Positions 2,680 through 29,092 of a stretch of DNA of 64,000 bases are shown here, piece by piece. The stretch spans positions 1,730-65,729 of the IMG/VR virus record IMGVR_UViG_3300024999_001770; one strand, written 5' to 3'. The stretch's first letter is position 1. Every line of letters starts with the position of its first letter. The stretch comes from a virus (lineage: Duplodnaviria; Caudoviricetes). The notes beneath the pieces were generated by a model. That model had not been told where the DNA came from. It saw only the letters and a program-made list of their open reading frames with translations, and ran no database searches. The position numbers were made by a program, and so were the translations under genes.

Positions 2680-2725
2680 TCTGATTCGTGCAACTAAAAG
2701 GTTCGACAAGAGGAGGCTAAGATAT

Positions 2726-2956: not shown

Positions 2957-2960
2957 TCAT

Positions 2961-3248
2961 TTATTAAAATTGAAAAAGCTGTGTTAAGGAGCAAAAGGGT
3001 AATGATATAATAGGCTGATAGGGGGATGAGTAAATGCATGAATGCGACAAGAAACCAAAAGACGATGCGCAATTTATTAATTTTTATCACGACAGCAAAT
3101 TAGGAGATAATGTCTATTATTGTGATTACTGCGGTGAACGATTGGACGTAACTAAAGAAACGGCGATAAAATATGGTCATCCAAAACGCCGTAAATTCTC
3201 TGATGAGATTCCAGAATGAATACCTTGTTTGTTAAAATTGAAAAAACT
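2961..3248 (+). repeat. Direct repeat TT(A/G)TTAAAATTGAAAAA(G/A)CT at 2961-2980 and 3229-3248 flanking the 61-aa moron
   Basis: 18/20 identity read from the sequence. Confidence 0.7.
3034..3219 (+). CDS. Small Cys-containing moron protein (CDYC)
   Basis: Own extended -10 (TGATATAAT), RBS GGGGG, downstream hairpin, flanked by a 20-bp direct repeat. Confidence 0.6.
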   Translation: MHECDKKPKDDAQFINFYHDSKLGDNVYYCDYCGERLDVTKETAIKYGHPKRRKFSDEIPE

Positions 3249-3256
3249 ATCGATTT

Positions 3257-3282
3257 AACACCCTTACATTAGGGGTGTTTTT
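3257..3282 (+). terminator. Rho-independent terminator
   Basis: AACACCCT-tacatt-AGGGGTGTT followed by a T-run. Confidence 0.65.
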
Positions 3283-3304
3283 CTTATGTTGAGAGGGGCT
3301 GATA

Positions 3305-4495
3305 ATGTTGGAGTTCTGGAACTTTGTAAATAATCCGGAAAATGAAAATGAAGTCGAACTTCGCATCGAAGGAGACATTGTTTGTGGCGATAATGCGTGG
3401 TTATATGAGTGGTTTGGAATACCTGTAGCCTCAAAAAATGCATTTAGGCTTGAATTAGCTAAACACAAGGGTAAGGACATAGTCCTCTGGATTGACTCTA
3501 ATGGCGGGGATGTTTTTGCTGCAACCGGAATGTATAACGCACTAATGGAGCATAAAAAGGATGGCGCAAAAATAACCTCAAAGACTGAAAAGGCCATGAG
3601 TGCTGCAACTATTCCACCCATGGCCGCAGATGAAAGATTGGTAAGCCCTGGATCTATGACCATGGTGCACAACCCTCTTACGGGGATCCGCGGATATGCC
3701 TCTGATCTAAGAAAAACGGCAGATGTACTTGATGAAGTTAAAGAGGCCATCATCAATGCTTATCAGCTCGGGACAGGCAGATCGAGGGAAGATATCTCTC
3801 TGATGATGGACAACGAGACATACATGAGCGCAAGCACAGCGATCAAGGAAGGCTTTGCAACTGGAATACTATACACAGACAAGCAATCCGTGGAGCCTAT
3901 CGAAAATACGTTCATGTTTAGTCGCCAATTGTCCATACAAAACAGTGTCACGGATTCAATGAAGCTGTTTTTTGAGCAACATGGCAAAGATCAAGTAGTT
4001 CCACCTATTACCGCCGTAGTAACGGATCCAAATCAAAAGGAGAGTGGGAACACAGTGGATATTAAAGACATTAAAAACATCGAAGAACTTCGTCAACACC
4101 TTCCGGAGTTTTGCAACCAACTAGAAGCGTCGGCACAAGCAACAGCACAGGCCGCACATGTTACTGCTCAAGCCGCAGCTCAAACTGCAGAGCGTGATCG
4201 CTTAAAAGGTATTGATGAAATTTCAGCTCTGATTGATCCCGCATTGGTCGCCAAGGCAAAATATGAGGAACCAATCACAGCAGAGGCCCTTGCTTTCCAA
4301 GCCTTCAAAGCAAATGCGGCCAAGGGAGAAACTTATGTGGCAACACGCGCAGCAGAGGTGCAAAACTCTGGTTCAAGCGGAGTAGGTGCTGGTGCGGGTC
4401 AAACTCAAGATGAAATTGATTCTGCGCTAGAGGCTGCAATCGTTAACCGAGTTGCAGCATCAGCCAACCAAAAAAGAAAGGTGGAAGCTAACTAA
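3305..4495 (+). CDS. Head maturation protease (ClpP type) with C-terminal scaffold domain
   Basis: IDSNGGDVF, AMSAAT, MVHNP and ETYMSA ClpP motifs; Ala-rich helical C-terminus; internal RBS plus in-frame GTG at 4055. Confidence 0.9.
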   Translation: MLEFWNFVNNPENENEVELRIEGDIVCGDNAWLYEWFGIPVASKNAFRLELAKHKGKDIVLWIDSNGGDVFAATGMYNALMEHKKDGAKITSKTEKAMSAATIPPMAADERLVSPGSMTMVHNPLTGIRGYASDLRKTADVLDEVKEAIINAYQLGTGRSREDISLMMDNETYMSASTAIKEGFATGILYTDKQSVEPIENTFMFSRQLSIQNSVTDSMKLFFEQHGKDQVVPPITAVVTDPNQKESGNTVDIKDIKNIEELRQHLPEFCNQLEASAQATAQAAHVTAQAAAQTAERDRLKGIDEISALIDPALVAKAKYEEPITAEALAFQAFKANAAKGETYVATRAAEVQNSGSSGVGAGAGQTQDEIDSALEAAIVNRVAASANQKRKVEAN

Positions 4496-12916: not shown

Positions 12917-13123
12917 ATGTCATACACAACTAAACAGGGTGATATGTGGGACTCGATGGCAAAGAGTCTTTATGGAAGCGAGAAATACACAGAGCAATTA
13001 ATGCAAGCCAATACCTCTAATATCTCGACCGTAGTTTTCCCTGCAGGGGTAGTATTAACAGTGCCCGAGGTGAATGCAGGGGCCAACACCAACACGTCAT
13101 CCCTGCCGCCATGGAGGACTTGA
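12917..13123 (+). CDS. Tail protein X (LysM-like)
   Basis: YTTKQGDMWD...LPPW. Confidence 0.88.
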   Translation: MSYTTKQGDMWDSMAKSLYGSEKYTEQLMQANTSNISTVVFPAGVVLTVPEVNAGANTNTSSLPPWRT

Positions 13124-13124
13124 T

Positions 13125-14138
13125 ATGTTAGCACGTAGAGTAAGTATCGACATTGTTTACCAGGGCGTTAATATTTCGGGCAGCATTGCAAATGATTTGG
13201 AATCTTTTAGCTATACGGACAATGCAAGAGAGACAGCAGATTCTATATCTATTACGCTTAAGGACGATGCTGGCAAGTGGATCTCTACCTGGGCTCCGGA
13301 ACAGGGCGACAAAATAAAAGCTTCTATCCTTACAACAAACTGGCGAAAAGAGGGGGACACTCAGAAGCTAGATTGCGGCGCATTCATGGTTGACGAGCCA
13401 GAATATGCAGGCCGACCCAGAACATTATCGCTTAATGCGGCAGCCCTTCCATCGGATAATAATTTCAGGGACACGACAAAAAGCCGGACGTGGGAAAATG
13501 TAACGACAAAGAACCTTGCAAATGATATTGCGTCTAATGCTGGGCTTTCTCTTTATTATGATACGGCAAAAATTTTTACGATCTCATATCTCGAGCAGAG
13601 TGAGCAGGCAGATAGTGCTTTCCTTGCAGATGTTTGTTCTAGATATGGACTAAGCCTCAAAATATACAATGATAGAATAGTGATGTTCTCTGAACAGGAA
13701 TACGAGGCCAGAGAGCCTATTGCATCAGTTACCGAAGAAATGACCGAAGGTAATTGGTCAGCAAAGAAGTCGCTTACTGGGACCGGGTATGATGCTTGTG
13801 TATTAACTTATACCCCGCCTGATTCTGGTCAGAAGTTACAATATACATTCGAACTTAATTCATCCCCAAAAAAGATCCTTAGGATCAACCAGGATGTAAC
13901 AAGTGTGGCAGAAGCAGAGATTGTTGCGAAGGCTGAACTAAGAAAAGCGAATACCAAACAGTATACAATGACTTTTACTGTACCTGGTAATGTTGATTTT
14001 ATCGCAAGTTCAATAATCAGGGTTACAGGGTTCGGAGTATTTGATAGCAAATACTATATCGATAAGGTTGATCATAGCATTGGGAGTAAGTTTACTTCAT
14101 CGTTAGAGCTTCACCGAGTGCTGGAAGGAGGATATTAA
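13125..14138 (+). CDS. Baseplate hub / late control D (P2 gpD-like)
   Basis: ATG 13125 with RBS GGAGG; SYTDN..ADSISITL, EQADSAFL and YYIDKVDHSI motifs. Confidence 0.88.
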   Translation: MLARRVSIDIVYQGVNISGSIANDLESFSYTDNARETADSISITLKDDAGKWISTWAPEQGDKIKASILTTNWRKEGDTQKLDCGAFMVDEPEYAGRPRTLSLNAAALPSDNNFRDTTKSRTWENVTTKNLANDIASNAGLSLYYDTAKIFTISYLEQSEQADSAFLADVCSRYGLSLKIYNDRIVMFSEQEYEAREPIASVTEEMTEGNWSAKKSLTGTGYDACVLTYTPPDSGQKLQYTFELNSSPKKILRINQDVTSVAEAEIVAKAELRKANTKQYTMTFTVPGNVDFIASSIIRVTGFGVFDSKYYIDKVDHSIGSKFTSSLELHRVLEGGY

Positions 14139-14566
14139 TGCTAAAAAACATGATTCGAATAGGAAAAATATCCTCGGTTAATGCAACCAAGGGTACGGTG
14201 AGAGTGGTAATAGATGACCAACAGGATATAGTGACCAATGAGCTGCCATTGCTGGCGGGCGAATATAACATGCCTGAGGCGGGGGACCTGGTTCTTTGCC
14301 TATTTTTAGGTAACGGAATATCAAGCGGGTTTTGCCTCGGGAAGTATTTTTCGACTGTGAGCCCCCCACCAGTGACAGATTCGCAGATAATTTATAAGGA
14401 TTTTGGAGACGGATCTTATATCAAGTACGACAAAGGCTCTAAAACATTAACTATTAAGACTGATAACGTGGCTATTGAAGGCAATCTTAGCGTAACCGGC
14501 AATATATCAGCAACAGGAACTATTCTCGATGTAGGTGGTAACACGAACAACCACTCTCACTCGTAG
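14138..14566 (+). CDS. Baseplate spike protein V
   Basis: IRIGKISSV N-terminus and C-terminal HSH iron-binding motif. Confidence 0.88.
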   Translation: MLKNMIRIGKISSVNATKGTVRVVIDDQQDIVTNELPLLAGEYNMPEAGDLVLCLFLGNGISSGFCLGKYFSTVSPPPVTDSQIIYKDFGDGSYIKYDKGSKTLTIKTDNVAIEGNLSVTGNISATGTILDVGGNTNNHSHS

Positions 14567-14581
14567 CGGGATGGTGATTAT

Positions 14582-14983
14582 ATGATTGGGTACTTTGGCA
14601 AGGACATTATTTTTGAAACCAGCGATCAGCGCATCCTTACCTTTTCCGGACTTAAGCAGGAGATCGCAAGCCGTTGGGGTAGTCATGAGCTCATCGGCGC
14701 AAAACCTAGGACTGAGTACATAGGTCCTGGACTTGATACGATTTCTTTTACCGTAGATTTAAACGGCAATAATGGAGTGAAGCCACGTACCGAAATGGAC
14801 CTATGGTTAGTTAAAGCAAGGGACGGAGTAGCGGAAACCTTTGTTATTGGTGATAAGCCCTTGGGTGCAGACAAATGGATAGTTAAGTCGGTAAGTCAAG
14901 CATGGAACACGGTATTTAACCACGGTGAGATTTTCTCTGGCAAGGTAGACGTTACACTTGAAGAATATATTTCAGTGCTGTAG
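14582..14983 (+). CDS. Tail protein (P2 gpU-like)
   Basis: EYIGPGLDTISF and VTLEEY motifs. Confidence 0.85.
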   Translation: MIGYFGKDIIFETSDQRILTFSGLKQEIASRWGSHELIGAKPRTEYIGPGLDTISFTVDLNGNNGVKPRTEMDLWLVKARDGVAETFVIGDKPLGADKWIVKSVSQAWNTVFNHGEIFSGKVDVTLEEYISVL

Positions 14984-14995
14984 GGAGGAGATCTT

Positions 14996-15304
14996 GTGAT
15001 GATAGAGTTAAGCGATGTCGTCCTGCAGATTGATTTCTCTGCAACCGGCACGGATGAAGTAATTCAGAATGTAAAAACGATCATAACTACCCCGGCCGGC
15101 ACGGTCCCCTTTGATCGCGACTTCGGGATTGACTGGAGTCTGCTTGACCTGCCGATCGGAGAATCCATGGCTAAGCTGACGGTGGAATATATCGAAAAAA
15201 TTAAAAAATACGAACCTAGGGCTAGTGTAAATAGCATATCTTTTACAGCAAATGACTCTGGCCAGCTCATACCAAAGGTGGTGATTAACATTGTCAACGC
15301 TTAG
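14996..15304 (+). CDS. Baseplate wedge protein W / gp25-like
   Basis: GTVPFDRDFG and KYEPRA motifs. Confidence 0.88.
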   Translation: MMIELSDVVLQIDFSATGTDEVIQNVKTIITTPAGTVPFDRDFGIDWSLLDLPIGESMAKLTVEYIEKIKKYEPRASVNSISFTANDSGQLIPKVVINIVNA

Positions 15305-16436
15305 CAATCTTCCGGACATCAACTTTGTAGACACCAATGTTGAAACCTTACTGACTAGCATGATAGCTGAATACGAAGCGGCGTATCTGGCTCAGACAGG
15401 AACGGCCAAAACGCTCCAGCCAGGGGATCCGGTGCGGATATGGATCTACACACAGGCGCTCCGAGTTTATCAAGCCCTTTTACTCATTGACTCAACAGCA
15501 AAGCGCAATCTTTTAAGGTATGCGAACAGCAACTACCTCGATAATCTGGGGGCGCGATATGGGACAAGAGGAACGAGGCTTGCAGCAGACAAGGCCGTTG
15601 TCATAGTTAGGTACACTTTATCGGCAGTACAAGCAGGAGATATTACGATTCCGGCGGGTAATAGAACAAGTCCAGGGGCTAATGTGTTTTTTGCCACTTC
15701 AGCGGCAGCGGTAATTCCTGCTGGAAGCACAACTCTTGACGTTGCCTCGGAATGCACAGCAGCAGGGGTAGCAGGGAACGGCTACACGGCAGGACAGGTA
15801 AACATATTGGTAGACCCTATTGCTTATGTTGCAAGCGCTAGTAATATTAACACTAGCCAGGGTGGCGCTGATATTGAGACAGACGATGCTTACAGAGAGC
15901 GTCTTTTTTTATTGCCTGAATCATTCAGTGTAGCAGGACCTTCGGAGGCTTATGAATATTTTACCAAGCAGTACAGCTCATCAATTGCCGACGTTAAGGT
16001 GACCTCGCCCACTGCTGGGGAGGTTGACGTTAGGTTTATCTTAGAGAATGGAGTAGTACCAGGGGAAACGATAATCGCTGGGGTTTTGGCTTATCTAGGC
16101 GATACGAGTCGAAGACCTTTAACTGACAGCGTGACCGTGCAGGAACCAACTGCCGTGAATTATAATATTACCTTAACCTATTATATTAAGGCTAGCGACA
16201 CAACCAATGCGACGATTATTCAGGCAGCAGTTACCACTGCTATAGCTAATTACGTTATATGGCAGAAGAGTAAAATCGGGCGCAGTATTAATCCGTCAGA
16301 ATTGATTTCCAGAGTAGTTGGGGCGGGGGCAAAGAGAGTTGTTTTAACTTTACCAATCTATGAGGCCATTACAGAAACTGAGCTTGCTGTCGCCGATGCT
16401 ATAACGGTTACCTATGGGGGGCTAGAAGATGAGTAG
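15291..16436 (+). CDS. Baseplate protein J
   Basis: GGADIETDDAYRER, SVAGPSEAY and RPLTD motifs. Confidence 0.92.
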   Translation: MSTLSNLPDINFVDTNVETLLTSMIAEYEAAYLAQTGTAKTLQPGDPVRIWIYTQALRVYQALLLIDSTAKRNLLRYANSNYLDNLGARYGTRGTRLAADKAVVIVRYTLSAVQAGDITIPAGNRTSPGANVFFATSAAAVIPAGSTTLDVASECTAAGVAGNGYTAGQVNILVDPIAYVASASNINTSQGGADIETDDAYRERLFLLPESFSVAGPSEAYEYFTKQYSSSIADVKVTSPTAGEVDVRFILENGVVPGETIIAGVLAYLGDTSRRPLTDSVTVQEPTAVNYNITLTYYIKASDTTNATIIQAAVTTAIANYVIWQKSKIGRSINPSELISRVVGAGAKRVVLTLPIYEAITETELAVADAITVTYGGLEDE

Positions 16437-16998
16437 CATTTCTAGTGCTAAGCTGATAGATCTTCTCCCGCCTAACCTGCGAAGTGATCCGGATATAATC
16501 GCTGCAAGCCAAGCGTTAGATAAAGAATTTTTCATATTGGCGGGAAAAATCAAGAATGTATTAACATTCGCTGATATCGATAACGCCAGCTCTGATGTGC
16601 TGGACAATTTAGCCTGGGAACTCAACACGGATTTTTATGATTCTACATTATCTATAGCCAAAAAGAGATCCTTGGTTAAGAACGCCTTGGTATATCACTT
16701 TACCAAAGGGACTCCTTACGCTATAGAACAATTGTTGGCAGATGCCTTTGATGATGCGGAGGTACTGGAATGGTTTGACTATAGTGGAACCCCATTCTAT
16801 TTCAAGATTGTGACATCAGATTCGATAACAACTGCTGCGAAGCTGACTGACCTGAAAAGAGCTATTGATTCAGTCAAACGGGAAAGTACCAGATTGGAAC
16901 GGATTACTGTAGCCAGAGATACTCCGTTTAATACCTTTTTCGCAGCGGTGGTTTCAACTAACGATACAATTGTTGTGAATACAAATATACCCGAATAG
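16429..16998 (+). CDS. Tail protein I (P2 gpI-like)
   Basis: LDNLAW, KGTPYAIE and EWFDYSGTPFYF motifs. Confidence 0.88.
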   Translation: MSSISSAKLIDLLPPNLRSDPDIIAASQALDKEFFILAGKIKNVLTFADIDNASSDVLDNLAWELNTDFYDSTLSIAKKRSLVKNALVYHFTKGTPYAIEQLLADAFDDAEVLEWFDYSGTPFYFKIVTSDSITTAAKLTDLKRAIDSVKRESTRLERITVARDTPFNTFFAAVVSTNDTIVVNTNIPE

Positions 16999-17009
16999 GG
17001 GGGATTAAG

Positions 17010-18266
17010 TTGGCTGATTTTGGAATCATGACAATTACAAATCTGGGGCTAACGTTATACGCAAAGGCGCAGACAGGGACAGCAATTGTCTTCACGAAGA
17101 TGCAGGTAGGCTCGGGGGATCTATCGGTTGGTCAAGCTATCGCAACCCTGACAGCCTTGATTGATTCAGAATTTGATGTGGCCATATCAGGCATTACCGT
17201 TGATACTGCAAACCATGTAGCTCGGGTTAAAGGAACGAAGGATAATACCGGGATGCTGGCGGGGCTGATAACAAAAGAATTAGGCTTGTTTGCCACCGAT
17301 CCGGATGATGGTGAAATATTATATGCCTATACCAACGCTGGCGACTTGGGCGATTATATCCCACCAGCAGCCGACGGTTTATTTACCCGGACTTATAAAA
17401 TCAATGCTGCGATCGGCAATGCTACAAATGTTACTATAGTAGTGCCACAGGATGTATATGCAACCCTGGAAGATCTTGAGGACCTGCAAAGTGAGACAGG
17501 TGTTTTATTAGCAACAAAGGAAACGCCTGCCGGAGCACAGGCCAAAGCTGATGCTGCAGCTGCAATTGGAGTTGCAGCTGCGGGAGCGGTACAGGAAGAG
17601 CTTGCTATACATCAGGCGGATTATGCGCACAATTACAAAAAAGATGCTGGTAGTACAGACGCTTATGTTGTTGCTCTTGATCCTGCCATAACCTCATATA
17701 CAGAAGGAATGACGTTAGACATATTTTGCAAAACCGCTAACACAGGAGCAGCAACATTAGATGCTGGTGGAGGAGCAAAAGACCTTCGGAAATATTACAA
17801 TGATGCTTTAGAAACTGGGGATATTGAGGCAGGTGCTATTATCACCGTCAAATGGGACTCCGCTAATGATTGGTGGCAAGTAACAAGCGGAATAAAAGTT
17901 ACGGTTGTTGATGGAACTACAGCAGTAAAAGGTATAGTGCAATTATCGACTTCTACTTCAAGCACAAGTACCACTTTAGCAGCAACTCCTAGTGCAGTAA
18001 AAGCAGCTTATGACTTAGCCAATTCTGGCGCTAGGATACTAACTGGCGAATATACTGGAGATGGGAGTTACGGTAGGACAATATCCATAGGAGTTACACC
18101 AAAGATGGTTATTGTGCAACAATCAAATTATGGTGATGGGGGCGCAATATCTAAAACAAATACTTCTTACGACAATTCTATAGTGTCCGGAGGTTTTAAG
18201 GTTGGGGACGCATCACCAGCTCTAAACACTAATGGTATAACCTATCATTGGGCAGCGGCCTATTAG
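17010..18266 (+). CDS. Tail fibre protein with constant N-terminal anchor and candidate exchangeable C-terminal part
   Basis: ELGLFATDPDDGEILYAY anchor; fibre repeat KGIVQLS...AATPSAVKAAYDLA; internal dif-like site at HQADY. Confidence 0.88.
   Translation: MADFGIMTITNLGLTLYAKAQTGTAIVFTKMQVGSGDLSVGQAIATLTALIDSEFDVAISGITVDTANHVARVKGTKDNTGMLAGLITKELGLFATDPDDGEILYAYTNAGDLGDYIPPAADGLFTRTYKINAAIGNATNVTIVVPQDVYATLEDLEDLQSETGVLLATKETPAGAQAKADAAAAIGVAAAGAVQEELAIHQADYAHNYKKDAGSTDAYVVALDPAITSYTEGMTLDIFCKTANTGAATLDAGGGAKDLRKYYNDALETGDIEAGAIITVKWDSANDWWQVTSGIKVTVVDGTTAVKGIVQLSTSTSSTSTTLAATPSAVKAAYDLANSGARILTGEYTGDGSYGRTISIGVTPKMVIVQQSNYGDGGAISKTNTSYDNSIVSGGFKVGDASPALNTNGITYHWAAAY
17604..17631 (+). other. 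Candidate tyrosine-recombinase site 1 (GCTATACATCA-GGCGGA-TTATGCGCACA) inside the tail-fibre ORF
   Basis: Shares ATTATGCGCA with sites 2 and 3; right arm is the reverse complement of the XerC arm of E. coli dif. Confidence 0.6.
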
Positions 18267-18276
18267 GAGGGAAAGC

Positions 18277-18885
18277 GTGGTAATTATTGTAGATTTAATA
18301 ACCAAACAAGTTAAACGGAACATAGGAACCAACAGCATGTTTCCAGATGGAAATATACCCAATGTAGAGCTTCAACCAAATGAACAGGCGGTCAAAATAC
18401 ATGATAATTCCCCATTAGCTCAGATAATATCTCTTGCAATGCCGGGGTATTATGACTTGGTTTTTAACGAATTGGGCGAGGCGATTGACGTTGTTGTCAC
18501 AAAGACTATAGCTGAGTACCAAACTCCTTCCCTCTCAGAAACACAACAACAAAAAATCCTAGAACTAAACATAGCTTGCAACCAAGAGATTCTAAATGGC
18601 TTTTCAAGTTCTTGTACAGGATTATCACATCAATACAAATTTGATATGGAATATCAAGGTAACTTCTCTAAAAAAATGGGTCTACTTGCGCTAGTTCCTA
18701 CTATCCAGTCAGTAGATTGGCCTACGAAGGATATGGGCGTAGTTGAGCATACAAGAGAACAATTTATTCAACTCATCATAGATGGTCAAACGCATATGGA
18801 AACGAAGATATTTCGGTATTTCGGGATGAAGGCACAAATTGAAGCATGTGAAACCGTTGAAGCAGTTAATGAATTTGTTTGGTAG
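18277..18885 (+). CDS. Tail-fibre-associated protein/chaperone (DUF4376-like C-terminus)
   Basis: Follows the fibre gene; CNQEILNGFSS, HTREQFIQL and terminal VW. Confidence 0.7.
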   Translation: MVIIVDLITKQVKRNIGTNSMFPDGNIPNVELQPNEQAVKIHDNSPLAQIISLAMPGYYDLVFNELGEAIDVVVTKTIAEYQTPSLSETQQQKILELNIACNQEILNGFSSSCTGLSHQYKFDMEYQGNFSKKMGLLALVPTIQSVDWPTKDMGVVEHTREQFIQLIIDGQTHMETKIFRYFGMKAQIEACETVEAVNEFVW

Positions 18886-19110
18886 GTGCAATTAATGAAA
18901 AGGTATCTATGGAATTTACTAATCTCAATTGATCAATTATGCAATGCAATTCTCGGAGGATTCCCCGATGAAACAATGAGTTCGCGGATGGGGAAGCGCG
19001 TAGCAAAAAAAGATAGCCCTCTTTGCAATTTTATTTGCAAGTTGCTGAACAAAATTGACAAAGATCACTGTATCAAATCAATTGAGAAGGACGAAGGATT
19101 ACAGATGTAG
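18886..19110 (+). CDS. Small conserved phage protein
   Basis: LISIDQLCNAILGGFPDETMSSRMGK...DKDHC pattern commonly found after tail fibres. Confidence 0.75.
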   Translation: MQLMKRYLWNLLISIDQLCNAILGGFPDETMSSRMGKRVAKKDSPLCNFICKLLNKIDKDHCIKSIEKDEGLQM

Positions 19111-19112
19111 TT

Positions 19113-19149
19113 ATGTCGCAGTAGACGCATTATGCGCATTAATGCGCAC
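19113..19149 (+). other. Candidate recombination site 2 (ATGTCGCAGTA-GACGCA-TTATGCGCAT, followed by an extra TAATGCGCAC)
   Basis: Starts 2 bp after the TAG of the upstream gene; same arm and orientation as site 1. Confidence 0.6.
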
Positions 19150-19245
19150 GAATTTAATATTTGTTTTTCGTGGTGATAACATATAAAATTATCATACGGG
19201 GTAAATCTTGAATTGCATTCCTGTAACCAGAGAGGAGTAAATAAA

Positions 19246-19473
19246 GTGGAGATAAAGCACGTAACGCCCCAAGAAGCCACTGATATTATTAATACAAAGC
19301 AACCGATTGGACTATTTCGCACGACCGGCGTTTTGAACACGGGATCAGCCGTAGATGGTATATATCTCGCTATTAATAATAGCGATGGCAATGCGCTGGT
19401 AAAGCAATTTATACACATAGGAGATTGTATGCAATGGCTTAGGTCAATACAAAAAAGACAATTACCAAATTGA
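19246..19473 (+). CDS. 75-aa hypothetical protein forming a one-gene cassette between sites 2 and 3
   Basis: RBS GAGGAG plus GTG 19246; its stop TGA overlaps site 3. Confidence 0.7.
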   Translation: MEIKHVTPQEATDIINTKQPIGLFRTTGVLNTGSAVDGIYLAINNSDGNALVKQFIHIGDCMQWLRSIQKRQLPN

Positions 19474-19488
19474 CTCATTATGCGCAGC
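19461..19488 (+). other. Candidate recombination site 3 (ATTACCAAATT-GACTCA-TTATGCGCAGC)
   Basis: Core differs from site 2 by one base; same arm; overlaps the ORF stop codon. Confidence 0.55.
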
Positions 19489-19490
19489 AA

Positions 19491-19521
19491 AAGGTCCCTA
19501 GTCGAAATGGCTAGGGACCTT
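19491..19521. terminator. Hairpin AAGGTCCCTAGTC-gaaat-GGCTAGGGACCTT closing the cassette array
   Basis: 13-bp stem. Confidence 0.6.
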
Positions 19522-19551
19522 AAAAATTGAAATTAAGAGAGGGATGAAATC

Positions 19552-19821
19552 GTGAAAGAGCAACCAGAATTGACCATTAAACTTACCATAGACGCAAGCG
19601 AAGCACTGGAAACCTTAGCAAACGTGAAAGAAAATCTTGAACAAATCGTGGGACTGCAGGGAAAAATAGCCGAACAGAAAGTGCAAGTTTCCGTCCGGCA
19701 AGTGACAATAAATCCTATAAGAATTGAGTTACCTAAAGAATTTAGTGTGGATGAATTTATTGCGAAACTAGAGAAAAACCTATTATCTGGTCTACAAACA
19801 GGATCAATTCAGGGAAATTAA
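19552..19821 (+). CDS. Hypothetical protein
   Basis: RBS GAGGG plus GTG; 89 aa. Confidence 0.5.
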   Translation: MKEQPELTIKLTIDASEALETLANVKENLEQIVGLQGKIAEQKVQVSVRQVTINPIRIELPKEFSVDEFIAKLEKNLLSGLQTGSIQGN

Positions 19822-20197
19822 CATGGGTATTAGGATTGACCAGTGGAAGCAGTTCGGCGTCTATTAGTCTTATTACGGATCCATTATCAATAATATCTGG
19901 TTCACCATTTTCCTCAGCATACTTATCTACGATTTTCTTGCGCTGTTGAAAGACGATAGTTTGATCAATCCGGAAGACCTTTCCCTCAGGGGAAGTTCCT
20001 GCCTCTTTCACGAAACTTTCTTCTTCTTGTTCAAGATTGAATTCAACTAATTTACCCTTAAAAGTCCCAGCAGCTGTTAGAATAACAACGTTCATTGGGA
20101 AAGTATTTTTATCCAACGAATCTTGTAAGTTTCCAAGGATTGAAAGGGTTAATTTCTTTAGTGAAATACGATTGGGCGTTGATACTTTATCTTCCAT
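19757..20197 (-). CDS. Hypothetical moron protein with a sigmaH-type promoter
   Basis: RBS GGAGGTG; ACAGGGTTT-N11-GTCGAAT upstream (20249-20275). Confidence 0.7.
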   Translation of the reverse strand: MEDKVSTPNRISLKKLTLSILGNLQDSLDKNTFPMNVVILTAAGTFKGKLVEFNLEQEEESFVKEAGTSPEGKVFRIDQTIVFQQRKKIVDKYAEENGEPDIIDNGSVIRLIDAELLPLVNPNTHVNFPELILFVDQIIGFSLVSQ

Positions 20198-20303
20198 TTA
20201 TTTTCACCTCCTCCCTGAAACAGATTGGTTAGCCGTGATAACTACCAAATTCGACACAAAGGAGGAAAACCCTGTAAATAATAAAGAAACGCCCTGAAAG
20301 GCG

Positions 20304-20459
20304 CTATTGAACTAAGTATTGCTTATGTGACTGTTTTCTTTTTTCATCGGACAGGACAGAGTAAATCAAGGTTGTTGCAGGATCTACGTGCCCGAGAAGT
20401 CCCTGCACGGCTACCAGATCAGCACCGTTGTTTAACATTAATGTTGCGAAAGTGTGCCT
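20304..20459 (-). pseudogene. C-terminal 51 aa of the Xer-type tyrosine recombinase (separated by the RIT insertion)
   Basis: Translates [33 protein letters not shown]...YLVQ*, containing the catalytic R, H and Y. Confidence 0.95.
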
Positions 20460-20587
20460 GAGCAAATCCAAACTTTTGGATTTTCTCCGAAATCAAAACT
20501 ATAATAAAATCCAAACTTACCAACCAAAAGTAAGGGAAATCAATATCTTTAGTAGTAGAAAAGTTTGGATTTTATTTATAGACGGGA

Positions 20588-21628
20588 TCATTTCTTAAAG
20601 CCGCAGAAGTCTATCAATGATCCATTTGGGTTCTTCCATTTCTTAGTGATTTTTTTATCGTTCTCATTTTCAAGCGTTGCCAGTGCTTTCGCTTTATCCT
20701 CTGTCGTTATATCAAGGTAGATCATGGTGGTCTCCAAGTGCTTATGTCCAAGAAGGAAACTGACTTGCAAGACGTTAAGCCCATCTTCAATCCAGTGAGA
20801 GGCTTTTCCATGGCGAAATTGATGGGCATGTATGGTTAATGGCACATCCACGCATATTTCGTGTGCTTTCTTACCATACATCTTCAATCTTTTGTCTATT
20901 GCAGGTTCCGTCATCTTCACATATTTTCCACCCACTCTGGAATAAAAAAGGTAGGCATCCGGATCCGCCGGATTTCCATGGACTTCATACACATATTTTT
21001 TGATATGTGAGACTGCTCTTGGTAGAAGATAAAGCGTCCTTGTCTTCTGGCCCTTGCCGACAATGGTGACATACGGCTTCTTCTGATCCATGTGCAATTG
21101 TTTGATCCTTACTGACAGGATCTCGTCCAGTCTTGCTGCAGTCGCATACAAAAGGATCATGAAAACAAGATCCCTTTTCCCAATGCTTGTAGCCGGATCC
21201 GGTAATGACAGCATGGCGTTAACGGCATCCCGTGTCAGTCCACTGACTTTCTTAGGGACGCATTTCTGCCTTTTAATTGACCTTGCATCCTGATACAGGT
21301 ACATGAATCTGACATCCCGGCTGCCAACATACTCAAGAAAGACGCGGATAGAAGCAAGACGTACATTACATGTGTCCGGACAGCAGTTGCGGCTTTCTTT
21401 AAGCCATCGGATCCATTTCTCGATATACAGCTTTTCGAAGCATGCCTTTGTGAAATCAGAGGGCGTTATACCTTCGGATTCGAGGAACAGCACATAAAGA
21501 GTTAATGCATCCTTATAAGATTTCAGTGTACGTTCACTATTTGTCAGGCTACCTGGAGCATAATCATAAAGGAAAGTCGCTATGTATCGTGAGAATGTCA
21601 CAGCTTCATTATTATTCTTCATCATCAA
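20588..21628 (-). CDS. ritC: RIT tyrosine recombinase C
   Basis: ATAARLDE, GKGQKTR, HAHQFRH and LGHKHLETTMIY motifs. Confidence 0.9.
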   Translation of the reverse strand: MMMKNNNEAVTFSRYIATFLYDYAPGSLTNSERTLKSYKDALTLYVLFLESEGITPSDFTKACFEKLYIEKWIRWLKESRNCCPDTCNVRLASIRVFLEYVGSRDVRFMYLYQDARSIKRQKCVPKKVSGLTRDAVNAMLSLPDPATSIGKRDLVFMILLYATAARLDEILSVRIKQLHMDQKKPYVTIVGKGQKTRTLYLLPRAVSHIKKYVYEVHGNPADPDAYLFYSRVGGKYVKMTEPAIDKRLKMYGKKAHEICVDVPLTIHAHQFRHGKASHWIEDGLNVLQVSFLLGHKHLETTMIYLDITTEDKAKALATLENENDKKITKKWKNPNGSLIDFCGFKK

Positions 21629-22583
21629 CCACCTCTGGTACTATGGCATTGAAATCCAACTCCGTCTTGTCGATCAGAATATCAGCAAGACGGGGAACGA
21701 TTGAATAATAATAACGTGTCGCCTCTATAGAACGATGCCCCATGGATTTTGAAAGATAATGCAGCTTATCGCTGAATTCATAACCATCATCACTCCAACT
21801 ATTGATGTTTACGATTGCATAATGATGGCGGACATCATATGCGACAGGCGAAGCCACAGAACCATTCGCCTTGTTCCACAGCGCACGAAAGTTATCCTGT
21901 ACCCAATCCCTGGAATAGTGGGGGCCTTTGCTGGACTGGAAGAAATATGCCCTGGACGGCTGCAGTTCAGAAATCGCCTGATTGTATTTCGTCATAAGGT
22001 TGGTCATCGTATCATGCATCGCGATATAATGCTGGTCATATCCTTTCGATCTCTGGATATCAATGACACCACGTTCAAGGTCGACGTTCTCTGTCCTGAG
22101 CAGCCTCGCCTCAGTTGTACGCATACCAGTGCTGTATAATAAACGGAAAAAGACTGGAACCGTGAACTTCCTTATGACCGATGCCCGCCTTCCGAGATAT
22201 GGCTGAATACTATCACAGACATGGAAGAAACGTTTCAGTTCATCCTCCTCAAATGCATATGGAATGTATGTTTGGGGTTCTGGTCTGAGGACAGCAGGAG
22301 GAAGGACATCCGTAAGCTCCCTGCATCGTAGGTAATCAATGAACGTCCTTATGACCCTAGTCCTAGTTTCATATGAGCGGTTTGTTTCGGTATCCCTTTT
22401 GGCACACCAAACATCAACCATCTCCTGTGTTAGTACCGTACTCGACTGATAGTTGTCAGCACAGAAATGGTCGAAAAGCTTGATGTTCAGCCCATAACAC
22501 GGTTCGTTCCATGAACCGGATGCCTTACGGTATTCAATAAAGCGTTCTATTAGCTTTGAAAAACCAGATCTGAACTGGCTCAT
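21612..22583 (-). CDS. ritB: RIT tyrosine recombinase B
   Basis: STGMRTTE, YDVRHHYA and MGHRSIEATRYY motifs. Confidence 0.9.
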   Translation of the reverse strand: MSQFRSGFSKLIERFIEYRKASGSWNEPCYGLNIKLFDHFCADNYQSSTVLTQEMVDVWCAKRDTETNRSYETRTRVIRTFIDYLRCRELTDVLPPAVLRPEPQTYIPYAFEEDELKRFFHVCDSIQPYLGRRASVIRKFTVPVFFRLLYSTGMRTTEARLLRTENVDLERGVIDIQRSKGYDQHYIAMHDTMTNLMTKYNQAISELQPSRAYFFQSSKGPHYSRDWVQDNFRALWNKANGSVASPVAYDVRHHYAIVNINSWSDDGYEFSDKLHYLSKSMGHRSIEATRYYYSIVPRLADILIDKTELDFNAIVPEVVDDEE

Positions 22584-23839
22584 GGACAGAACACCCCCTC
22601 ACTTACCGGGAATGCCTCTATACTTAAAGTGCATTCTTTCAGGTGCACAAGGTCAGCATGGAGGTATGGATCCAATGAATGGGGGTTTGAATGCCCCAGC
22701 GTCTGACTGATAACCGGCCGAGGGATTCCGCTGCCCAGGAAAGATGTCGCGACATTGTGCCTGAAAAGATGCGTTCCACGACGGTCGCCTTTTTTCTGCC
22801 GCAAAGAAGCGGCTTTATAAATTTTGGCTGCCTGATGCCAGACAGCACTAGCTTTAAACGGATAATGAGGATAAACCTCGCTAAGAAACAAGTGAGTATC
22901 GTTGCTTTTGGGCCGTTCATTTACAAGATAATCATAAATGGAATTTCCAATAGTTGCTGTAAGAGGAAGAACTAGCGGTTGTCCAGTCTTCTGTTGCAGA
23001 AAATGTATTTCGTCAGCATCCCAGTCAATGGAACTGAGTTCCATCTCAGCGATATCGCACGCTCTTATCCCTGTAAAGAACAGTAGTTTACCAACCGCCC
23101 TGTCTCGTAATGATAAGCCAGAATTTCTGTCATCAAGCAAGGCATGGATGGATTCAACTTCTTCAGATGTGAGAAACTGGATATTTTTTCTTTTGGGGCG
23201 TATCGGAGGAAGGTATGCAAGGAGAATCTGACATTCTTTTTCTTTCCAGCCAATCCCAGCTTTAAAAACAGCCGCTAGCTGTTTTTTGTAGCTACTACAC
23301 TTAGAAACCTTGCCCTCGCTGTCAAGAAAAAAGGAGAGCACATCTTCTTCATTGATACAGTCAAGACTTTGTAAGCCTTTCTTTTGCATGGCACAGAGGA
23401 AAGTTGATGCGGCAGACGCATTCCCATAAATTGTCCGTTCTTTCAGACCGCGGAGTTTATCTGATGCCATGTAAAAATCTATAAATTCCTTGAATTCTGG
23501 GATAAGTTGATAATAAGTGCCTCGTTTTATGAAACAGTTTTTGATTCTTCTGTTCGGATATTCTCCATAAAGATCGAATTGCTGTATGGCTCCAAATGCT
23601 ATCCTTTGGTTCTTCTTATACAGTTTCGATTCTGATTTATGTACCCGGTCATTGTAGACATCAATATAAGATTGCCATGATCTATACTTTTCATTTTTCA
23701 GTATCCATTTGATATCCTCATGAACAAGCCGGATATAGCTTTCTGTGTATTCCTCCTTTTCAATGTAATCCAATAGTTCACGATAATGCTGTTGCAAATG
23801 TGTAAAATCCATATATGAACACCTCCTTGGTTTTATCAT
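22580..23839 (-). CDS. ritA: RIT tyrosine recombinase A
   Basis: TGIRACD, HLFRHNVA and LGHSNPHSLDPY motifs. Confidence 0.9.
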   Translation of the reverse strand: MIKPRRCSYMDFTHLQQHYRELLDYIEKEEYTESYIRLVHEDIKWILKNEKYRSWQSYIDVYNDRVHKSESKLYKKNQRIAFGAIQQFDLYGEYPNRRIKNCFIKRGTYYQLIPEFKEFIDFYMASDKLRGLKERTIYGNASAASTFLCAMQKKGLQSLDCINEEDVLSFFLDSEGKVSKCSSYKKQLAAVFKAGIGWKEKECQILLAYLPPIRPKRKNIQFLTSEEVESIHALLDDRNSGLSLRDRAVGKLLFFTGIRACDIAEMELSSIDWDADEIHFLQQKTGQPLVLPLTATIGNSIYDYLVNERPKSNDTHLFLSEVYPHYPFKASAVWHQAAKIYKAASLRQKKGDRRGTHLFRHNVATSFLGSGIPRPVISQTLGHSNPHSLDPYLHADLVHLKECTLSIEAFPVSEGVFCP

Positions 23840-23946
23840 ATATGAGTCTTACCTTCAAAATAAAATCCAAACTTTATAGAAGCCAAAGCCTATGGTTTAT
23901 TTGATTTTTGGCAGATAGTTTGGATTTTATTATAGTTTTGATTTCT

Positions 23947-24792
23947 GAAAATATGAGGATGCACGTTTTTGGTGACCTCTGATCGACCGGCTATGACCTT
24001 AACCTCTCGCTGGATGCCCTTTGCCGAAAGCCTTCGGTAAGGCCGGCGCTCCGTTACAAACAGTGCGTCCACGGTGTCGGAACGCTTCTTTAGGTATTTT
24101 TGCAAGTGATACATGGCTTTAAAGCTAAAATAAACGGGACGCTGTTTATTTCCTTTTCCAACAACAACCACTGACATTGCTTGATAGTCGATATCTCCCC
24201 GGTTCAATTGTTGTACTTCGGTGAGACGCGCCCCAGTGGCATAGTATACCTCAATGAGTGCTCGTTCTCGGGGTGTGACACAGGCCTCGCGGATCATCTC
24301 AAGTTCTTCTATCGTGAGTGCCTTTGGTGCTCTTTGTTCTTTCTTTGGTGGCTTGATTTGCTTAGTTGCGTCGTTGGGAATTATTTTCTCTGCCGTCAGC
24401 CAGCCGAACATAGATTTTAGAACAGACAATTTCTTGGATATTGAAGAAGTTTTGAGGTGATCGAATTCGCTAAGGAAGATCCTGATGTCTGCAGTGGTGA
24501 TCTCATCAGTAGCTTTGTGGATGTGTTCAGAAAAGATCCGAAGTTCAAGAGTGTAACTTTCTAGCGTTGAAATAGCGAGGCCCTCGAGCTTTTTACCGGC
24601 CAAGAACAGTTTGATTTTGGCTGCTAGATCGGGATGGCCGTTGGGTACCAGCGCTGGCTTGATGTCGTATTGGGAAAGGATGACGGAAAGTGTTTTCTGT
24701 AATTCAAGCTTGTCCAGATTTGGGCAAAAAATGGCGCCCACCACCTGCTCGAGCAGAATTTCAGCGGTTGAGCTAAGTATTTGTTGAGACAT
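23947..24792 (-). pseudogene. N-terminal 282 aa of the Xer-type tyrosine recombinase, interrupted at the HxxR motif
   Basis: ATGARLTE, GKGNKQR and VHPHIF, then reads into the RIT inverted repeat; joining to 20304-20459 gives 333 aa. Confidence 0.95.
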
Positions 24793-25815: not shown

Positions 25816-26217
25816 ATGAACGTAAAAGAGTTTAGCTTTAGTACCATGATAGCTGCAGTAGGGACGGTCGTGAGCGCATGCCTGGGAGGGTGGGATAGGG
25901 GATTACAAGCGCTCATATACTGCATGGCCCTAGATTACGCATTTGGGCTATTGGGAGCCATCAAAAACAAGCAAGTAAACAGCGAGACCATGTTTTGGGG
26001 CGGCATCCGGAAAGGGTCCATCCTTGCAGTCTTGTCCATTGCTGTCGTGTTGGATGGCCTAGTAGGAAATCACGAACCAATTTTTCGCACGATGGCTGTC
26101 TATTTTTACGTAGGGAGAGAAGGGTGGTCTATAGCAGAAAACTTGGGCATCCTTGGGGTGCCATTGCCAGGAGGGCTTAAAAAAATATTGACTCAACTAC
26201 AGGAGAAGGGGGATTAA
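25816..26217 (+). CDS. Holin (toxin secretion/phage lysis holin family)
   Basis: LGGWD, GIRKG and EGWSIAENLG..GVPLP motifs. Confidence 0.92.
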   Translation: MNVKEFSFSTMIAAVGTVVSACLGGWDRGLQALIYCMALDYAFGLLGAIKNKQVNSETMFWGGIRKGSILAVLSIAVVLDGLVGNHEPIFRTMAVYFYVGREGWSIAENLGILGVPLPGGLKKILTQLQEKGD

Positions 26218-26218
26218 C

Positions 26219-27058
26219 GTGAGTGACATAATTTATGATCTGGTATTCGACCCGGGACACGGGGGATCTGATCCGGGAGCATTAGGACCAACGACCAGGG
26301 AGAAAAATAATGTGCTGATACTGGCCAAAAAAACAGCGACATACCTAGAACAAACTGGGCGCTTTAGGGTGAAGTTCACCAGGACTACTGACATAGATTT
26401 CTGTGGTGGAGCGCACTACAGTGAAGATCTGGATCTTAAGAATCGGGTTAATGTGGCCAATGCTCTGGGTGGAAAAGCATTCGTTTCATTCCATAATAAC
26501 TCAGCTGCAGCAAAAGCATACGGAAATGAAGTATACGCTGCAGCTGCAGGAGGCGAAGGGGAGAAACTGGCCAAGGCTATACGCGCTCGGATGGCCGCGC
26601 AGCTTGACATGGTAGACCGCGGTGTTAAGTTCGCAGGGTGGTATGTATGCAAATGGACCGATATGCCGGCCGTGCTCATTGAGTACGGCTTTATTAATTC
26701 CGAGGAAGCTGTAATCTTGGACAAGATGGACCAGGCGGCCCTAACGATTGCCCAAGGAATCGGTGACCATTTTGGCGTAAGTGTCAATGCACCAAGAAAG
26801 GAGGCATACGACGTGAAAGAAGCTGTTTTGGCTTATGGAATCGAAGATTACCTGGTACCCGCACGCAGAGAATCAATTAAGCTCGGTAACTGTGCTGTAT
26901 TTACTAGGCTCGATGACAAAAAACCACCGGCAGACGTTTTCAAGGCAGAGCACTTGACCATTGTCGGTGGCGGATCCGTCGGTCATCCAAATGAAACAAT
27001 TCTATCAGGGGAAACGTGGGGAGATACCGCAGCTGCTGTAAGCGCAACCGGCGCGTAA
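26219..27058 (+). CDS. Endolysin, N-acetylmuramoyl-L-alanine amidase (Amidase_3) with C-terminal domain
   Basis: DPGHGG.DPGA, SFHNNS and PAVLIEYGFI motifs; internal RBS plus GTG at 26813. Confidence 0.93.
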   Translation: MSDIIYDLVFDPGHGGSDPGALGPTTREKNNVLILAKKTATYLEQTGRFRVKFTRTTDIDFCGGAHYSEDLDLKNRVNVANALGGKAFVSFHNNSAAAKAYGNEVYAAAAGGEGEKLAKAIRARMAAQLDMVDRGVKFAGWYVCKWTDMPAVLIEYGFINSEEAVILDKMDQAALTIAQGIGDHFGVSVNAPRKEAYDVKEAVLAYGIEDYLVPARRESIKLGNCAVFTRLDDKKPPADVFKAEHLTIVGGGSVGHPNETILSGETWGDTAAAVSATGA

Positions 27059-28033: not shown

Positions 28034-29092
28034 ATGCGTACAGTTAAAGAGGTAACTATCAAAAATGCCATAGCCCACTCTTTGGACAATAGCATTGATT
28101 CATCGAGATTAAGTGATTACGAATTAGATCTAGACGAAAAAGTAGTTAGCTTCATTAGAACCCATGTTCTAAAATCCCTGGAGGATGAAAAAATAAGGGC
28201 TGCAAAGTATGAAGCTGGTCGAAACATTGTGAAAGAAAGTGCAGATAGTATATTTGATTTCCCAGAGAAATTTTTAGAGGAATCTAAAGAAATTGCGAGG
28301 CAGCTATTTCTGGCAATGCAATCTAACAAAAACATAACTTCTGCAGATTTGATTGTTTCCCTTTATGAAGGAAACGGTCAGAACTATCTTGCAGTTCTAA
28401 AAATGGATTATCAGAGTACATACATTACTGAAAGTAAAGTCATTAGCGGAAAAACTAAAATAGTATTAACTGATAAGGGAATCAGCTTGCCGAATATCCG
28501 TCAGAAATTACAAAAATGCGTTTTTTTTAAAAGAAGTATCACAGAAGATGCGGATGTAGAAACTGCAAATAACACTTACGATATGCTTTTAATAGATAGG
28601 CAGGCAAGGCAAGAGTCAGAAAGAGATATCGCTCAGTATTTTGCAACAACATTTTTAAAGTGTAAGTTAGTGTTGAACGATAAGGATAGAACCAAGAAAT
28701 TCCACTTGAAAGTCAAAAAATATGTAAATGAATTTTTGGCCGATCAACCAGAAGAACAAAAAAGGGTTTTGGATAGTTTGGAAGTTACTTTGAGAAACCA
28801 ACAACATGTTAGTGCTGTTGAATTTTCAAATAACCATTTCTCAGAAGAGCAAAGGCAATTATTCTTGGATTTCTTAGTTAATGAAGGCCTTTCTGATTTT
28901 GAATTTGTGCCGGACAAAGAGTATGTGCAGGCAAAGTATAAAATCAGGAAGATAAGAACTAACGAAAAAATTGAAGTTTCTTTACTAGATGATGATTACA
29001 AGAATCCAGAAAAATTTAGTTACGAGCCCGTTGAGGGCGGCAGGTATAATCTTACTATAAAGAGTGTAAAAGTAACTGACTGGGGCGGATGA
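28034..29092 (+). CDS. Nucleoid-associated protein (NA37/YejK-like family)
   Basis: IAHSLD, SKEIARQLF..M, SADLIV, LAVLKMDY and QKLQKC motifs. Confidence 0.8.
   Translation: MRTVKEVTIKNAIAHSLDNSIDSSRLSDYELDLDEKVVSFIRTHVLKSLEDEKIRAAKYEAGRNIVKESADSIFDFPEKFLEESKEIARQLFLAMQSNKNITSADLIVSLYEGNGQNYLAVLKMDYQSTYITESKVISGKTKIVLTDKGISLPNIRQKLQKCVFFKRSITEDADVETANNTYDMLLIDRQARQESERDIAQYFATTFLKCKLVLNDKDRTKKFHLKVKKYVNEFLADQPEEQKRVLDSLEVTLRNQQHVSAVEFSNNHFSEEQRQLFLDFLVNEGLSDFEFVPDKEYVQAKYKIRKIRTNEKIEVSLLDDDYKNPEKFSYEPVEGGRYNLTIKSVKVTDWGG

Follow-up and report, generated by a model that had tools for sequence, protein, structure and literature searches.

Tail-fibre locus and its direct repeats

The DNA analysed here, called the window, is a 64-kb stretch of a 65.7-kb viral record in IMG/VR (IMGVR_UViG_3300024999_001770) that CheckV rates as complete. 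The locus under study lies at the 3' end of the contractile-tail late operon, with a holin and an amidase beyond, and comprises three short dif-like sites in direct orientation, the first within the tail-fibre gene, together with a Xer-type tyrosine recombinase gene that is split by an insert (Table 1). An earlier note on this DNA had described the sites, the open reading frames (ORFs) around them, and a hairpin after the last site, and all of these were found where it had placed them. It had also reported a fall in guanine-plus-cytosine content after site 1, which was seen as a modest change from 0.47-0.48 at 17300-17749 to 0.40-0.42 and then to 0.36-0.38 by 18350-19100.

Table 1. Features of the window discussed in the text; positions are counted from its first base
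Feature	Position	Strand	Details
Baseplate genes	15291-16998		PHROGs 6 and 48
Tail-fibre gene, 418 aa	17010-18266	+	Pfam Phage_fiber_2 and Phage_tail_fib; PHROG 7037
Site 1 (fibre class)	17604-17631	+	Left arm 17604-17614; spacer GGCGGA 17615-17620; right arm 17621-17631
DUF4376 protein gene, 202 aa	18277-18885	+	Pfam DUF4376; PHROG 1348 'tail fiber protein'
74-aa gene, function unknown	18886-19110	+	PHROG 3342; last gene of the tip module
Site 2 (cassette class)	19113-19140	+	Left arm 19113-19123; spacer GACGCA 19124-19129; right arm 19130-19140
Second right-arm copy at site 2	19140-19149	+	One mismatch; 10 bp after the first copy
86-aa gene (75 aa if started at GTG 19246)	19213-19473	+	Weak match to PHROG 37721; sole gene of the 348-bp unit between sites 2 and 3
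Site 3 (cassette class)	19461-19488	+	Left arm 19461-19471; spacer GACTCA 19472-19477; right arm 19478-19488
Hairpin after last site	19491-19521	+	Read from the sequence; not called by a consensus terminator scan
Two small orphan genes between array and recombinase	19552-20197	+ and -	89 aa on +, 146 aa on -
Recombinase, C fragment (R of HxxR to stop)	20304-20461	-	Within 55-aa ORF 20304-20471; PHROG integrase matches; followed by terminator 20305-20288
RIT-like insert, 3,487 bp	20462-23948	-	Three tandem tyrosine recombinase genes; splits the Xer-type gene
Insert gene 3, 346 aa	20588-21628	-	PF00589
Insert gene 2, 323 aa	21612-22583	-	PF00589; 4-nt overlap with gene 1
Insert gene 1, 419 aa	22580-23839	-	PF00589
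Recombinase, N part	23945-24792	-	Within 300-aa ORF 23890-24792; SAM_1, SAM_4, and positions 3-134 of 172 of Phage_integrase
Holin	25816-26217
Amidase	26219-27058
Large serine recombinase	40919-42523

The sequence TTATGCGCA occurs at 17621, 19130, and 19478, in each case on the plus strand and all within 1.9 kb, and no other copy was found on either strand of the 64 kb. Three copies compare with 0.57 expected, and none of 100 shuffles reached three. A 15-mer with up to two mismatches recovered the same three places (0.39 expected; 2 of 100 shuffles reached three), and the sites were also the top family in a search for direct repeats, with spacings of 1509 and 348. When a weight matrix was built from the sites of 27 relatives, scores of 13 or more were obtained in the whole window only at sites 1, 2, and 3 (14.1, 41.0, and 35.5, respectively).

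Geometry and classes of the sites

Each copy of TTATGCGCA forms the right arm of a 28-bp site; upstream of it come a spacer of 6 bp and an inverted left arm of weaker match. The geometry was examined by matching the 9 nt upstream to the reverse complement of the right arm with spacers of 0 to 12, where about 2.25 of 9 positions would match by chance. The dyad match was highest at a 6-bp spacer both for fibre sites (5.57/9, next best 4.14; n = 7) and for cassette sites (4.42/9, next best 3.23; n = 26), in agreement with the 11-6-11, dif-like arrangement that had been claimed.

Two classes of site can be told apart by their spacers, which read GGCrGA (GGCGGA or GGCAGA) in the fibre class and GACnCA in the cassette class, and this difference is kept across relatives. 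Site 1 lies inside the fibre ORF at ...LAIHQADYAH and codes for AIHQADYAH; the corresponding codons in relatives read L-x-x-H-Q/K-A-D-Y-A-H/Q at the joint between shaft and tip. Site 2 begins 14 nt past the stop of the 74-aa ORF, and site 3 overlaps the TGA of the 86-aa ORF. In cassette sites the arm is repeated, inverted and less perfectly, in the 11 nt before the spacer, and this left arm varies between units. The order seen at site 3, with GCAA and a hairpin after the site, is found again in L016, L017, L079, L093, and L109. The fibre-class sites of L025 (11072), L024 (3758), and L142 (237) have a perfect left arm and a weak right arm, the spacer being the reverse complement on the searched strand. 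Because the fibre site of L025 carries the perfect arm on its left, the two arms are taken as copies of a single recognition sequence, which is what a system with one enzyme would show.

Fibre variants are switched by inversion in some phages, and this arrangement was considered and rejected for the window, which has no reverse-strand copy of the site; the window and its relatives each have one tip-like segment per locus. Reverse-strand matches in relatives are the palindromic extension of the arm or a decayed copy, and they run into stop codons, in L003 after a few codons.

Like site 2, relatives have a second arm copy, which lies 10 or 20 bp beyond the first. In composite sites of this type (L003 9739-9840; L070 13743-13830; L034 60-110 and 909-960), the two right arms 10 or 20 bp apart are followed by a conserved C-rich stretch and TATAAT, always 5' of a gene of 58-62 aa. 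The product looks like a ribbon-helix-helix protein by eye, gave no family match, and could be a regulator or an accessory factor for recombination.

Homology breaks at the fibre joint and at site 2

Relatives were gathered through the fibre (12 loci) and through the N part of the recombinase (16 loci), and in them the same nine bases are found both at the fibre joint and past the final tail gene. Eight distinct relatives, with nine loci in all, have homology to the window that starts or stops at 17601-17632. L008 is 76% identical to the window over 13001-17620 and unrelated beyond; homology begins at 17615-17620 in L009, L012, and L013 and at 17601-17602 in L010/L011 and L014; L016 matches at 17520-17620 and again at 18895-19138, and homology to L017 ends at 17632. 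When L008 and L017 were compared with each other, the left arm and spacer were common to both and divergence set in at the first base past the spacer. At the protein level, fibre residues 1-195 are 89% identical to L008, and from about residue 196-201 onward the tip is one common to other phages. The fibre is accordingly described below as a predicted N-terminal shaft, to about residue 200, followed by a tip module. The earlier note had proposed relatives as a check on whether fibre homology breaks at the peptide HQADY, and when this was done the break was found there.

The window, L014, and L023 agree at every position, synonymous ones included, of a 29-nt stretch at the joint (17601-17629), and both flanks of this stretch differ; in L023 these 29 of 29 bases are all that is shared with the window by DNA at the fibre joint. 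Identity at all synonymous positions between differing flanks suggests that the DNA itself has been under selection or was recently exchanged.

Similar breaks were found at site 2, where homology to L016 stops at 19138 and to L023 at 19135, and the homologues of the 74-aa gene in these two relatives (82% and 72% identical, respectively) likewise end right before a site. In contigs from four runs of two studies, joints or loose ends fall at 17620, 17629, and 17633 by site 1 and at 19129, 19134, 19136, 19138, and 19148 by site 2; the window may itself come from three of these runs, and mixed-strain contigs can break at shared stretches. Read depths, and the parts of the window left uncovered in runs X4 and X5, were set aside as evidence.

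Two further conserved stretches were noted. The first, of about 110 nt (17509-17620, coding ...KETPAGAQAKADAAAAIGVAAAGAVQEELAIHQ), is 80-90% identical across fibres whose N-terminal proteins are about 50% identical (L003, L016, and L017) and forms a second, longer conserved joint immediately upstream of site 1. The second is the 80 nt past the recombinase stop (20224-20303, terminator included), which is 82-88% identical in many relatives despite differing cargo and so marks the far border, itself fixed, of the variable region.

Site-bounded units in relatives

The earlier note had claimed that the sites bound discrete units, and in relatives they do delimit units that vary between phages. A one-gene block of about 1.45 kb is 96.8% identical between L096 (11336-12791) and L070 (11189-12642) in different surroundings. 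It spans the first spacer base of one site to the last right-arm base of the next, and the product of its only gene, of 388 aa, has Big_2 and Big_3 domains. The L096 copy is placed between the terminator of the tail genes and the holin. In L070 the same terminator is followed by a decayed site, a 303-aa DUF5677 gene on the opposite strand, a site, the shared block, another site, a 201-aa gene, and a composite site; the direct sites of L070 thus number at least four and enclose three one-gene units, one of which, between the upstream terminator and the block, is extra compared with L096. Direct pairs of sites 0.6-2 kb apart were also found in the Desulfosporosinus genomes G002, G021, and G032, and L096 likewise has two sites. 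The number of units per array is thus two in the window, three in L070, and one each in L096, G002, G021, and G032, with the sites in the same orientation. The cargo matched only Big_2/Big_3, DUF5677, and DUF6338 in Pfam, and none of 10 cargo proteins matched the defence models of PADLOC.

For the 86-aa unit of the window, one contig in run X5 leads from the left side of site 2, at 19134, straight into a right arm that has decayed and a terminator resembling that past site 3, and so represents a relative that does not have the unit. No relative of the unit was found in IMG/VR; metagenome contigs gave one weak partial match with no site nearby, and the protein collection gave two relatives. The case for mobility of this particular unit consists of the cassette-less X5 contig end and the layout of L016, and its mobility is put forward only on these terms. 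A simpler reading of L016 as the window minus 348 bp was rejected, since its 615 nt past the site are unrelated to the window.

A split Xer-type recombinase next to the sites

As had been claimed, a tyrosine recombinase separate from the large serine recombinase is present; it is real, though split, and its two parts total the 333 codons that had been given. The N part is 64-87% identical to intact homologues and the C fragment 96% identical to their C termini, and the gene is interrupted between H and R of the HxxR motif. SAM-like core-binding and Phage_integrase domains are present, and the catalytic R..HxxR..H/W..Y residues could be read by eye in the translation. The intact homologue of L003 aligns to XerD (1a0p; E value of 3.6e-29) and to XerA. 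Scores against curated models were 206 bits for XerA (cut-off 220), 195 for XerC (335), 194 for XerD (330), and 79 for XerS (267), and models of integron integrases also stayed below their cut-offs (TIGR02249, 105 bits against 265; PRK15417, 60 against 435). The enzyme is therefore classed, by its sequence, as Xer-like and as belonging to none of the named equivalogs.

In relatives the gene is conserved, convergent to the fibre gene, and about 333-350 aa long when intact. Past the recombinase stop there is a site, always convergent, at a distance of 50 nt (L008), 54 nt (L130), about 95 nt (L093), or about 100 nt (L025); longer distances were found in L016 and L017 (about 0.6-0.7 kb) and L020 (1.2 kb), and in the complete direct-terminal-repeat genome G011 the site is about 0.9 kb past the stop. 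Altogether, a site adjoins the recombinase gene in at least 17 records. Among 42 Desulfosporosinus genomes, the recombinase gene was found in 3 (E value of ≤1e-70), and all 3 have an adjoining site. The gene is accordingly conserved beside sites in relatives, as had been expected of it, but in the window itself it is broken.

The 15-mer was present in 7 of the 42 Desulfosporosinus genomes, with 10 matches against 1 for a reversed control, and the motif for this reason is neither random nor the chromosomal dif. A mimic of host dif was rejected on the same grounds, the 15-mer being found in 7 of 42 genomes of the genus and not in each. Two host genomes had 3 and 6 occurrences of the 11-mer; among these nine places, four (all in G002) have an extended site, and five look random. 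Across IMG/VR the 15-mer was found in at least 100 stretches, and among the matches listed about 85 were unrelated coding sequences of other phage groups and about 15 belonged to this family; the raw count is uninformative alone.

Apparently damaged homologues of the recombinase were noted at L172 (G002:C185) 2458-3471, L008 10692-11691, L029 8001-8835, and L093 243-1056, with either one in-frame TGA or a match split in two frames. The two-piece matches, in L008, L029, and L093, suggest a frameshift, and loss of the enzyme may be common among the homologues.

An RIT-like element interrupts the recombinase gene

The insert that splits the gene ends in 38-nt terminal inverted repeats that are 92% complementary, with a 4-nt direct repeat at the joints. 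It is absent from all 18 distinct IMG/VR contigs with the recombinase; the two halves abut there and in the genome loci, so that the insert is peculiar to this phage. In the published description (PMC3414803), RITs consist of three adjacent, overlapping tyrosine recombinase genes in about 3.5 kb with terminal inverted repeats. The insert resembles them in its three recombinase genes with short overlaps, its size of about 3.5 kb, and its terminal inverted repeats, and differs in lying in a Firmicute phage and inside another recombinase gene, RITs being described in that source mainly in alpha- and betaproteobacteria (PMC3414803).

Run X5, a sediment metagenome from another study, contains the insert at 95-99% identity with other flanks, and a joint in this run leads from 23946 back to 20461 with one extra letter. 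The joint is that of a circle or a tandem copy, which suggests that the RIT-like element is currently mobile. Because the insert breaks the recombinase gene, the enzyme of this phage is probably dead and its array frozen, and nothing would be expected to move without help in trans.

Neighbouring genes

The DUF4376 protein is probably a fibre assembly protein or an accessory protein of the tip, and the large serine recombinase is likely the integrase of the phage. The 89-aa and 146-aa orphans between the array and the recombinase had no Pfam or PADLOC matches and were not found in any fetched relative; the 146-aa product weakly matched PHROG 3773 (function unknown; E value of 3.9e-08). Directly after the lysis genes, at 28034-29092, a 352-aa nucleoid-associated protein of the NA37/YejK type is encoded. 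A megablast search of 13 kb against 50,697 GenBank phage records gave no match, so that no annotated relative was found there.

A proposed cassette system encoded by the phage

We propose that the locus is probably a phage-borne, self-encoded system of dif-like cassettes that follows the logic of integrons and dif modules. Its components would be one armless, Xer-type tyrosine recombinase of about 333-350 aa and 28-bp dif-like core sites, with a nearly invariant right arm and a weaker, unit-specific left arm, and the Xer-type enzyme is predicted to cut these sites. Cassette sites stand after the last tail gene, near the 3' end of the recombinase gene, with single-gene units between direct copies. 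A unit that brings its own left arm, and whose spacer and right arm are as in its neighbours, may be the trace of a circle integrated at one site; circles would then be the intermediates, and excision would remove such a unit.

Fibre sites are written into the codons of the joint between shaft and tip, and the tip module (the tip, the assembly protein, and the small gene) would lie between two heterospecific sites. Tyrosine recombinases such as Cre, Flp, lambda Int, and XerCD normally need identical spacers in the two partners. Under this rule the two spacer classes would set the choice of partner, and since the sites that flank the tip module are of different classes they would not be expected to recombine with each other, so that the module is probably protected from deletion within the genome. 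Each flanking site could instead pair with its like in another phage or prophage, and two such like-with-like exchanges would swap the whole tip module in frame, as a natural form of recombinase-mediated cassette exchange. A related phage could supply the enzyme to the array of the window.

This scheme departs from the single-circle model of the earlier note, with the same outcome. That note had the fibre tip replaced by way of a circle of 17621-19129; a break at the site is indeed found at the tip, but the difference between the fibre spacer (GGCGGA) and the cassette spacers (GACGCA and GACTCA) makes the one-step circle doubtful, and like-with-like exchange fits better. Of the proposed excision and capture of cassettes, the site-bounded layout was observed, and no excision or insertion product was seen.

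Several observations weigh against the proposal of a cassette system. No excised circle, deletion, or insertion product was seen in the assembled contigs of four runs, which are unable to show rare forms. The relatives are mostly metagenome contigs, in which assemblers may join strains wrongly at common stretches, and the sites that were counted are related by descent, so that the counts are not independent. The letters of the fibre site also encode a conserved peptide, the similarity of left arms may partly stem from homologous gene ends just upstream, and the spacers differ even inside the array of the window (GACGCA and GACTCA). The one relative of the 86-aa gene with readable surroundings, in a Desulfosporosinus prophage (G022; L167, G022:C37, 10171-10368), has no sites around it; it is 83% identical over residues 12-77 and follows a helix-turn-helix gene, beyond the lysin. 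The 86-aa gene therefore seems to travel by other means too.

The link between sites and enzyme is also looser than had been supposed. Five of eight site-bearing Desulfosporosinus genomes (seven with exact sites and one with a decayed site) have no close homologue of the recombinase at E values of ≤1e-70. In the complete provirus G005 there is a single site, and the sole integrase is a terminal one; G003 (29.9 kb, 76% complete) has four sites and no PF00589 gene. To call the recombinase dedicated to the sites, as the earlier note did, is too strong in view of this provirus and these five genomes. Conversely, no convincing site was found at 11 loci with homologues of 50-60% identity from prophages of Bacillales (Paenibacillus, Bacillus, Anoxybacillus, and Halobacillus; best scores, 16.5 and 13.4), nor was an array found when the surroundings of 18 recombinase loci were scanned for recurring 11-mers that contain TTATG or CATAA.

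Alternative explanations

The recombinase and its nearest site might serve to resolve genome multimers, the extra sites and genes being by-products and the fibre motif unrelated. Single-recombinase Xer systems such as XerS and XerH have their site beside the gene, and many relatives (L008, L016, L017, L025, and L130) show this one-site layout, with a single cassette-class site near the gene; the best scores of the protein are to Xer models, and the serine integrase already covers integration of the phage. Resolution would leave unexplained, however, why the same arm and geometry recur at the fibre joint with conserved synonymous positions, why homology breaks there, and why identical site-bounded one-gene blocks appear in different arrays, and several direct sites with the same spacer, as in L070, would harm pure resolution. 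As the main present function it is unlikely. It is compatible with a cassette system, which may have begun as a gene and site for multimer resolution.

Alternatively, the motifs could be conserved linkers at module borders that are used by general or phage-encoded homologous recombination, with the neighbouring recombinase uninvolved. Mosaicism of tail-fibre genes at short conserved joints is well known, the stretch at 17509-17620 that is 80-90% identical in otherwise diverged fibres could serve ordinary recombination, and genomes exist with sites and no recombinase. Yet several of the breaks lie within a few bases of the spacer and are not spread along the 110-nt stretch; the cassette sites are non-coding, 15-28 nt long, and present at each unit border as a dyad with a fixed 6-bp spacer; and sites adjoin the recombinase gene in the records counted above. 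We regard this explanation as improbable. That the motif is an operator, part of a terminator, or some other protein-binding or RNA signal of the late operon, with a fibre copy that is a coding coincidence, seems very improbable indeed, for although the sites contain the palindrome ATGCGCAT, many are directly followed by a hairpin, and composite arms lie one or two helical turns (10 or 20 bp) apart just 5' of TATAAT and the small gene (L003, L070, and L034), no promoter-like site was called on the plus strand near sites 2 and 3, and the breaks at the motif, the motif-bounded blocks, and the direct repeats around single genes would be left unexplained.

Implications of the proposed cassette system

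The proposal of a phage-encoded cassette system can be extended, more tentatively, to the statement that some Firmicute phages possess an integron-like device made up of one Xer-type recombinase and sites of two heterospecific classes, of which the fibre class would serve in-frame replacement of the tip and the other the capture and shedding of cargo between the tail and lysis genes. Mosaicism of fibres and the moron hotspot in the interval between tail and lysis genes are usually ascribed to rare illegitimate or relaxed homologous recombination. If the proposal is true, both would gain a defined enzyme and defined 28-bp sites, and the exchange of modules would become predictable from sequence and open to assay on plasmids. 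Host range and accessory genes would then be traded by programmed recombination and not by chance mosaicism, and fibres would be diversified by replacement instead of inversion. The pair of sites around the tip module would offer a natural heterospecific pair for swapping receptor-binding modules of phages in the laboratory.

Comparison with known systems

No description of such arrays was found in the full-text literature searched, whose scope did not extend to subscription journals. IMEX, for example the filamentous vibriophages, use dif-like sites to integrate into the host dif by means of host XerCD. Here dif-like sites would likewise move DNA, but the sites lie within the phage and the enzyme is phage-encoded.

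Integrons have a recombinase beside an array of mostly one-gene units with unit-specific, direct sites, and arrays without an enzyme also occur. The phage arrays are similar in that mostly single-gene units end in their own site, in direct orientation, and in that enzyme-less arrays are found too. They differ in that the enzyme is not of the IntI type, as reflected in its score against TIGR02249, that the sites are short, 28-bp sites of a double-strand type with no long palindromes at the unit ends, unlike folded attC, and that units may lie on either strand, as does the 303-aa gene of L070.

According to one report, pdif sites are 28 bp long and consist of two 11-bp arms around a 6-bp centre, with inner parts that are palindromic and one arm better conserved than the other (PMC6449649), and another describes the dif modules of Acinetobacter as units that are shuffled, replaced, and excised at such sites (PMC13141974). 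The phage units resemble them as discrete gene units bounded by 28-bp, 11-6-11 sites (PMC6449649). In Acinetobacter, C and D sites alternate, two host enzymes (XerC and XerD) act, and the modules are on plasmids (PMC13141974), whereas all cassette sites here are direct. Unlike those modules, the phage has a single recombinase of its own, arms that stem from one sequence, and one site within a structural gene, and its motif is not the host dif, being absent from 35 of the 42 genomes of the host genus.

Among systems that vary receptor binding, Rin of Bifidobacterium prophages is an armless, XerD-like recombinase that lies by the receptor-binding locus, apart from the integrase, and inverts silent C-terminal variants between inverted 11-bp sites (PMC6109161). 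The present locus is similar in having an armless tyrosine recombinase near a receptor-binding gene and short asymmetric repeats at the joint between constant and variable parts (PMC6109161). It differs in that the window has no inverted copy and no second copy of the tip and in that the sites also bound non-fibre cargo. Gin of Mu, Cin of P1, and Min of p15B, as presented in that source, likewise act by site-specific recombination at the joint between constant and variable fibre parts (PMC6109161); these are serine invertases with inverted sites in one genome, in contrast to the tyrosine recombinase and direct sites found here. The system thus shares features with dif modules, integrons, and Rin and fails a defining feature of each, and, if the proposal is true, phages whose hosts are anaerobic spore-formers (Desulfosporosinus and relatives) would follow the same logic as integrons and the dif modules of Acinetobacter.

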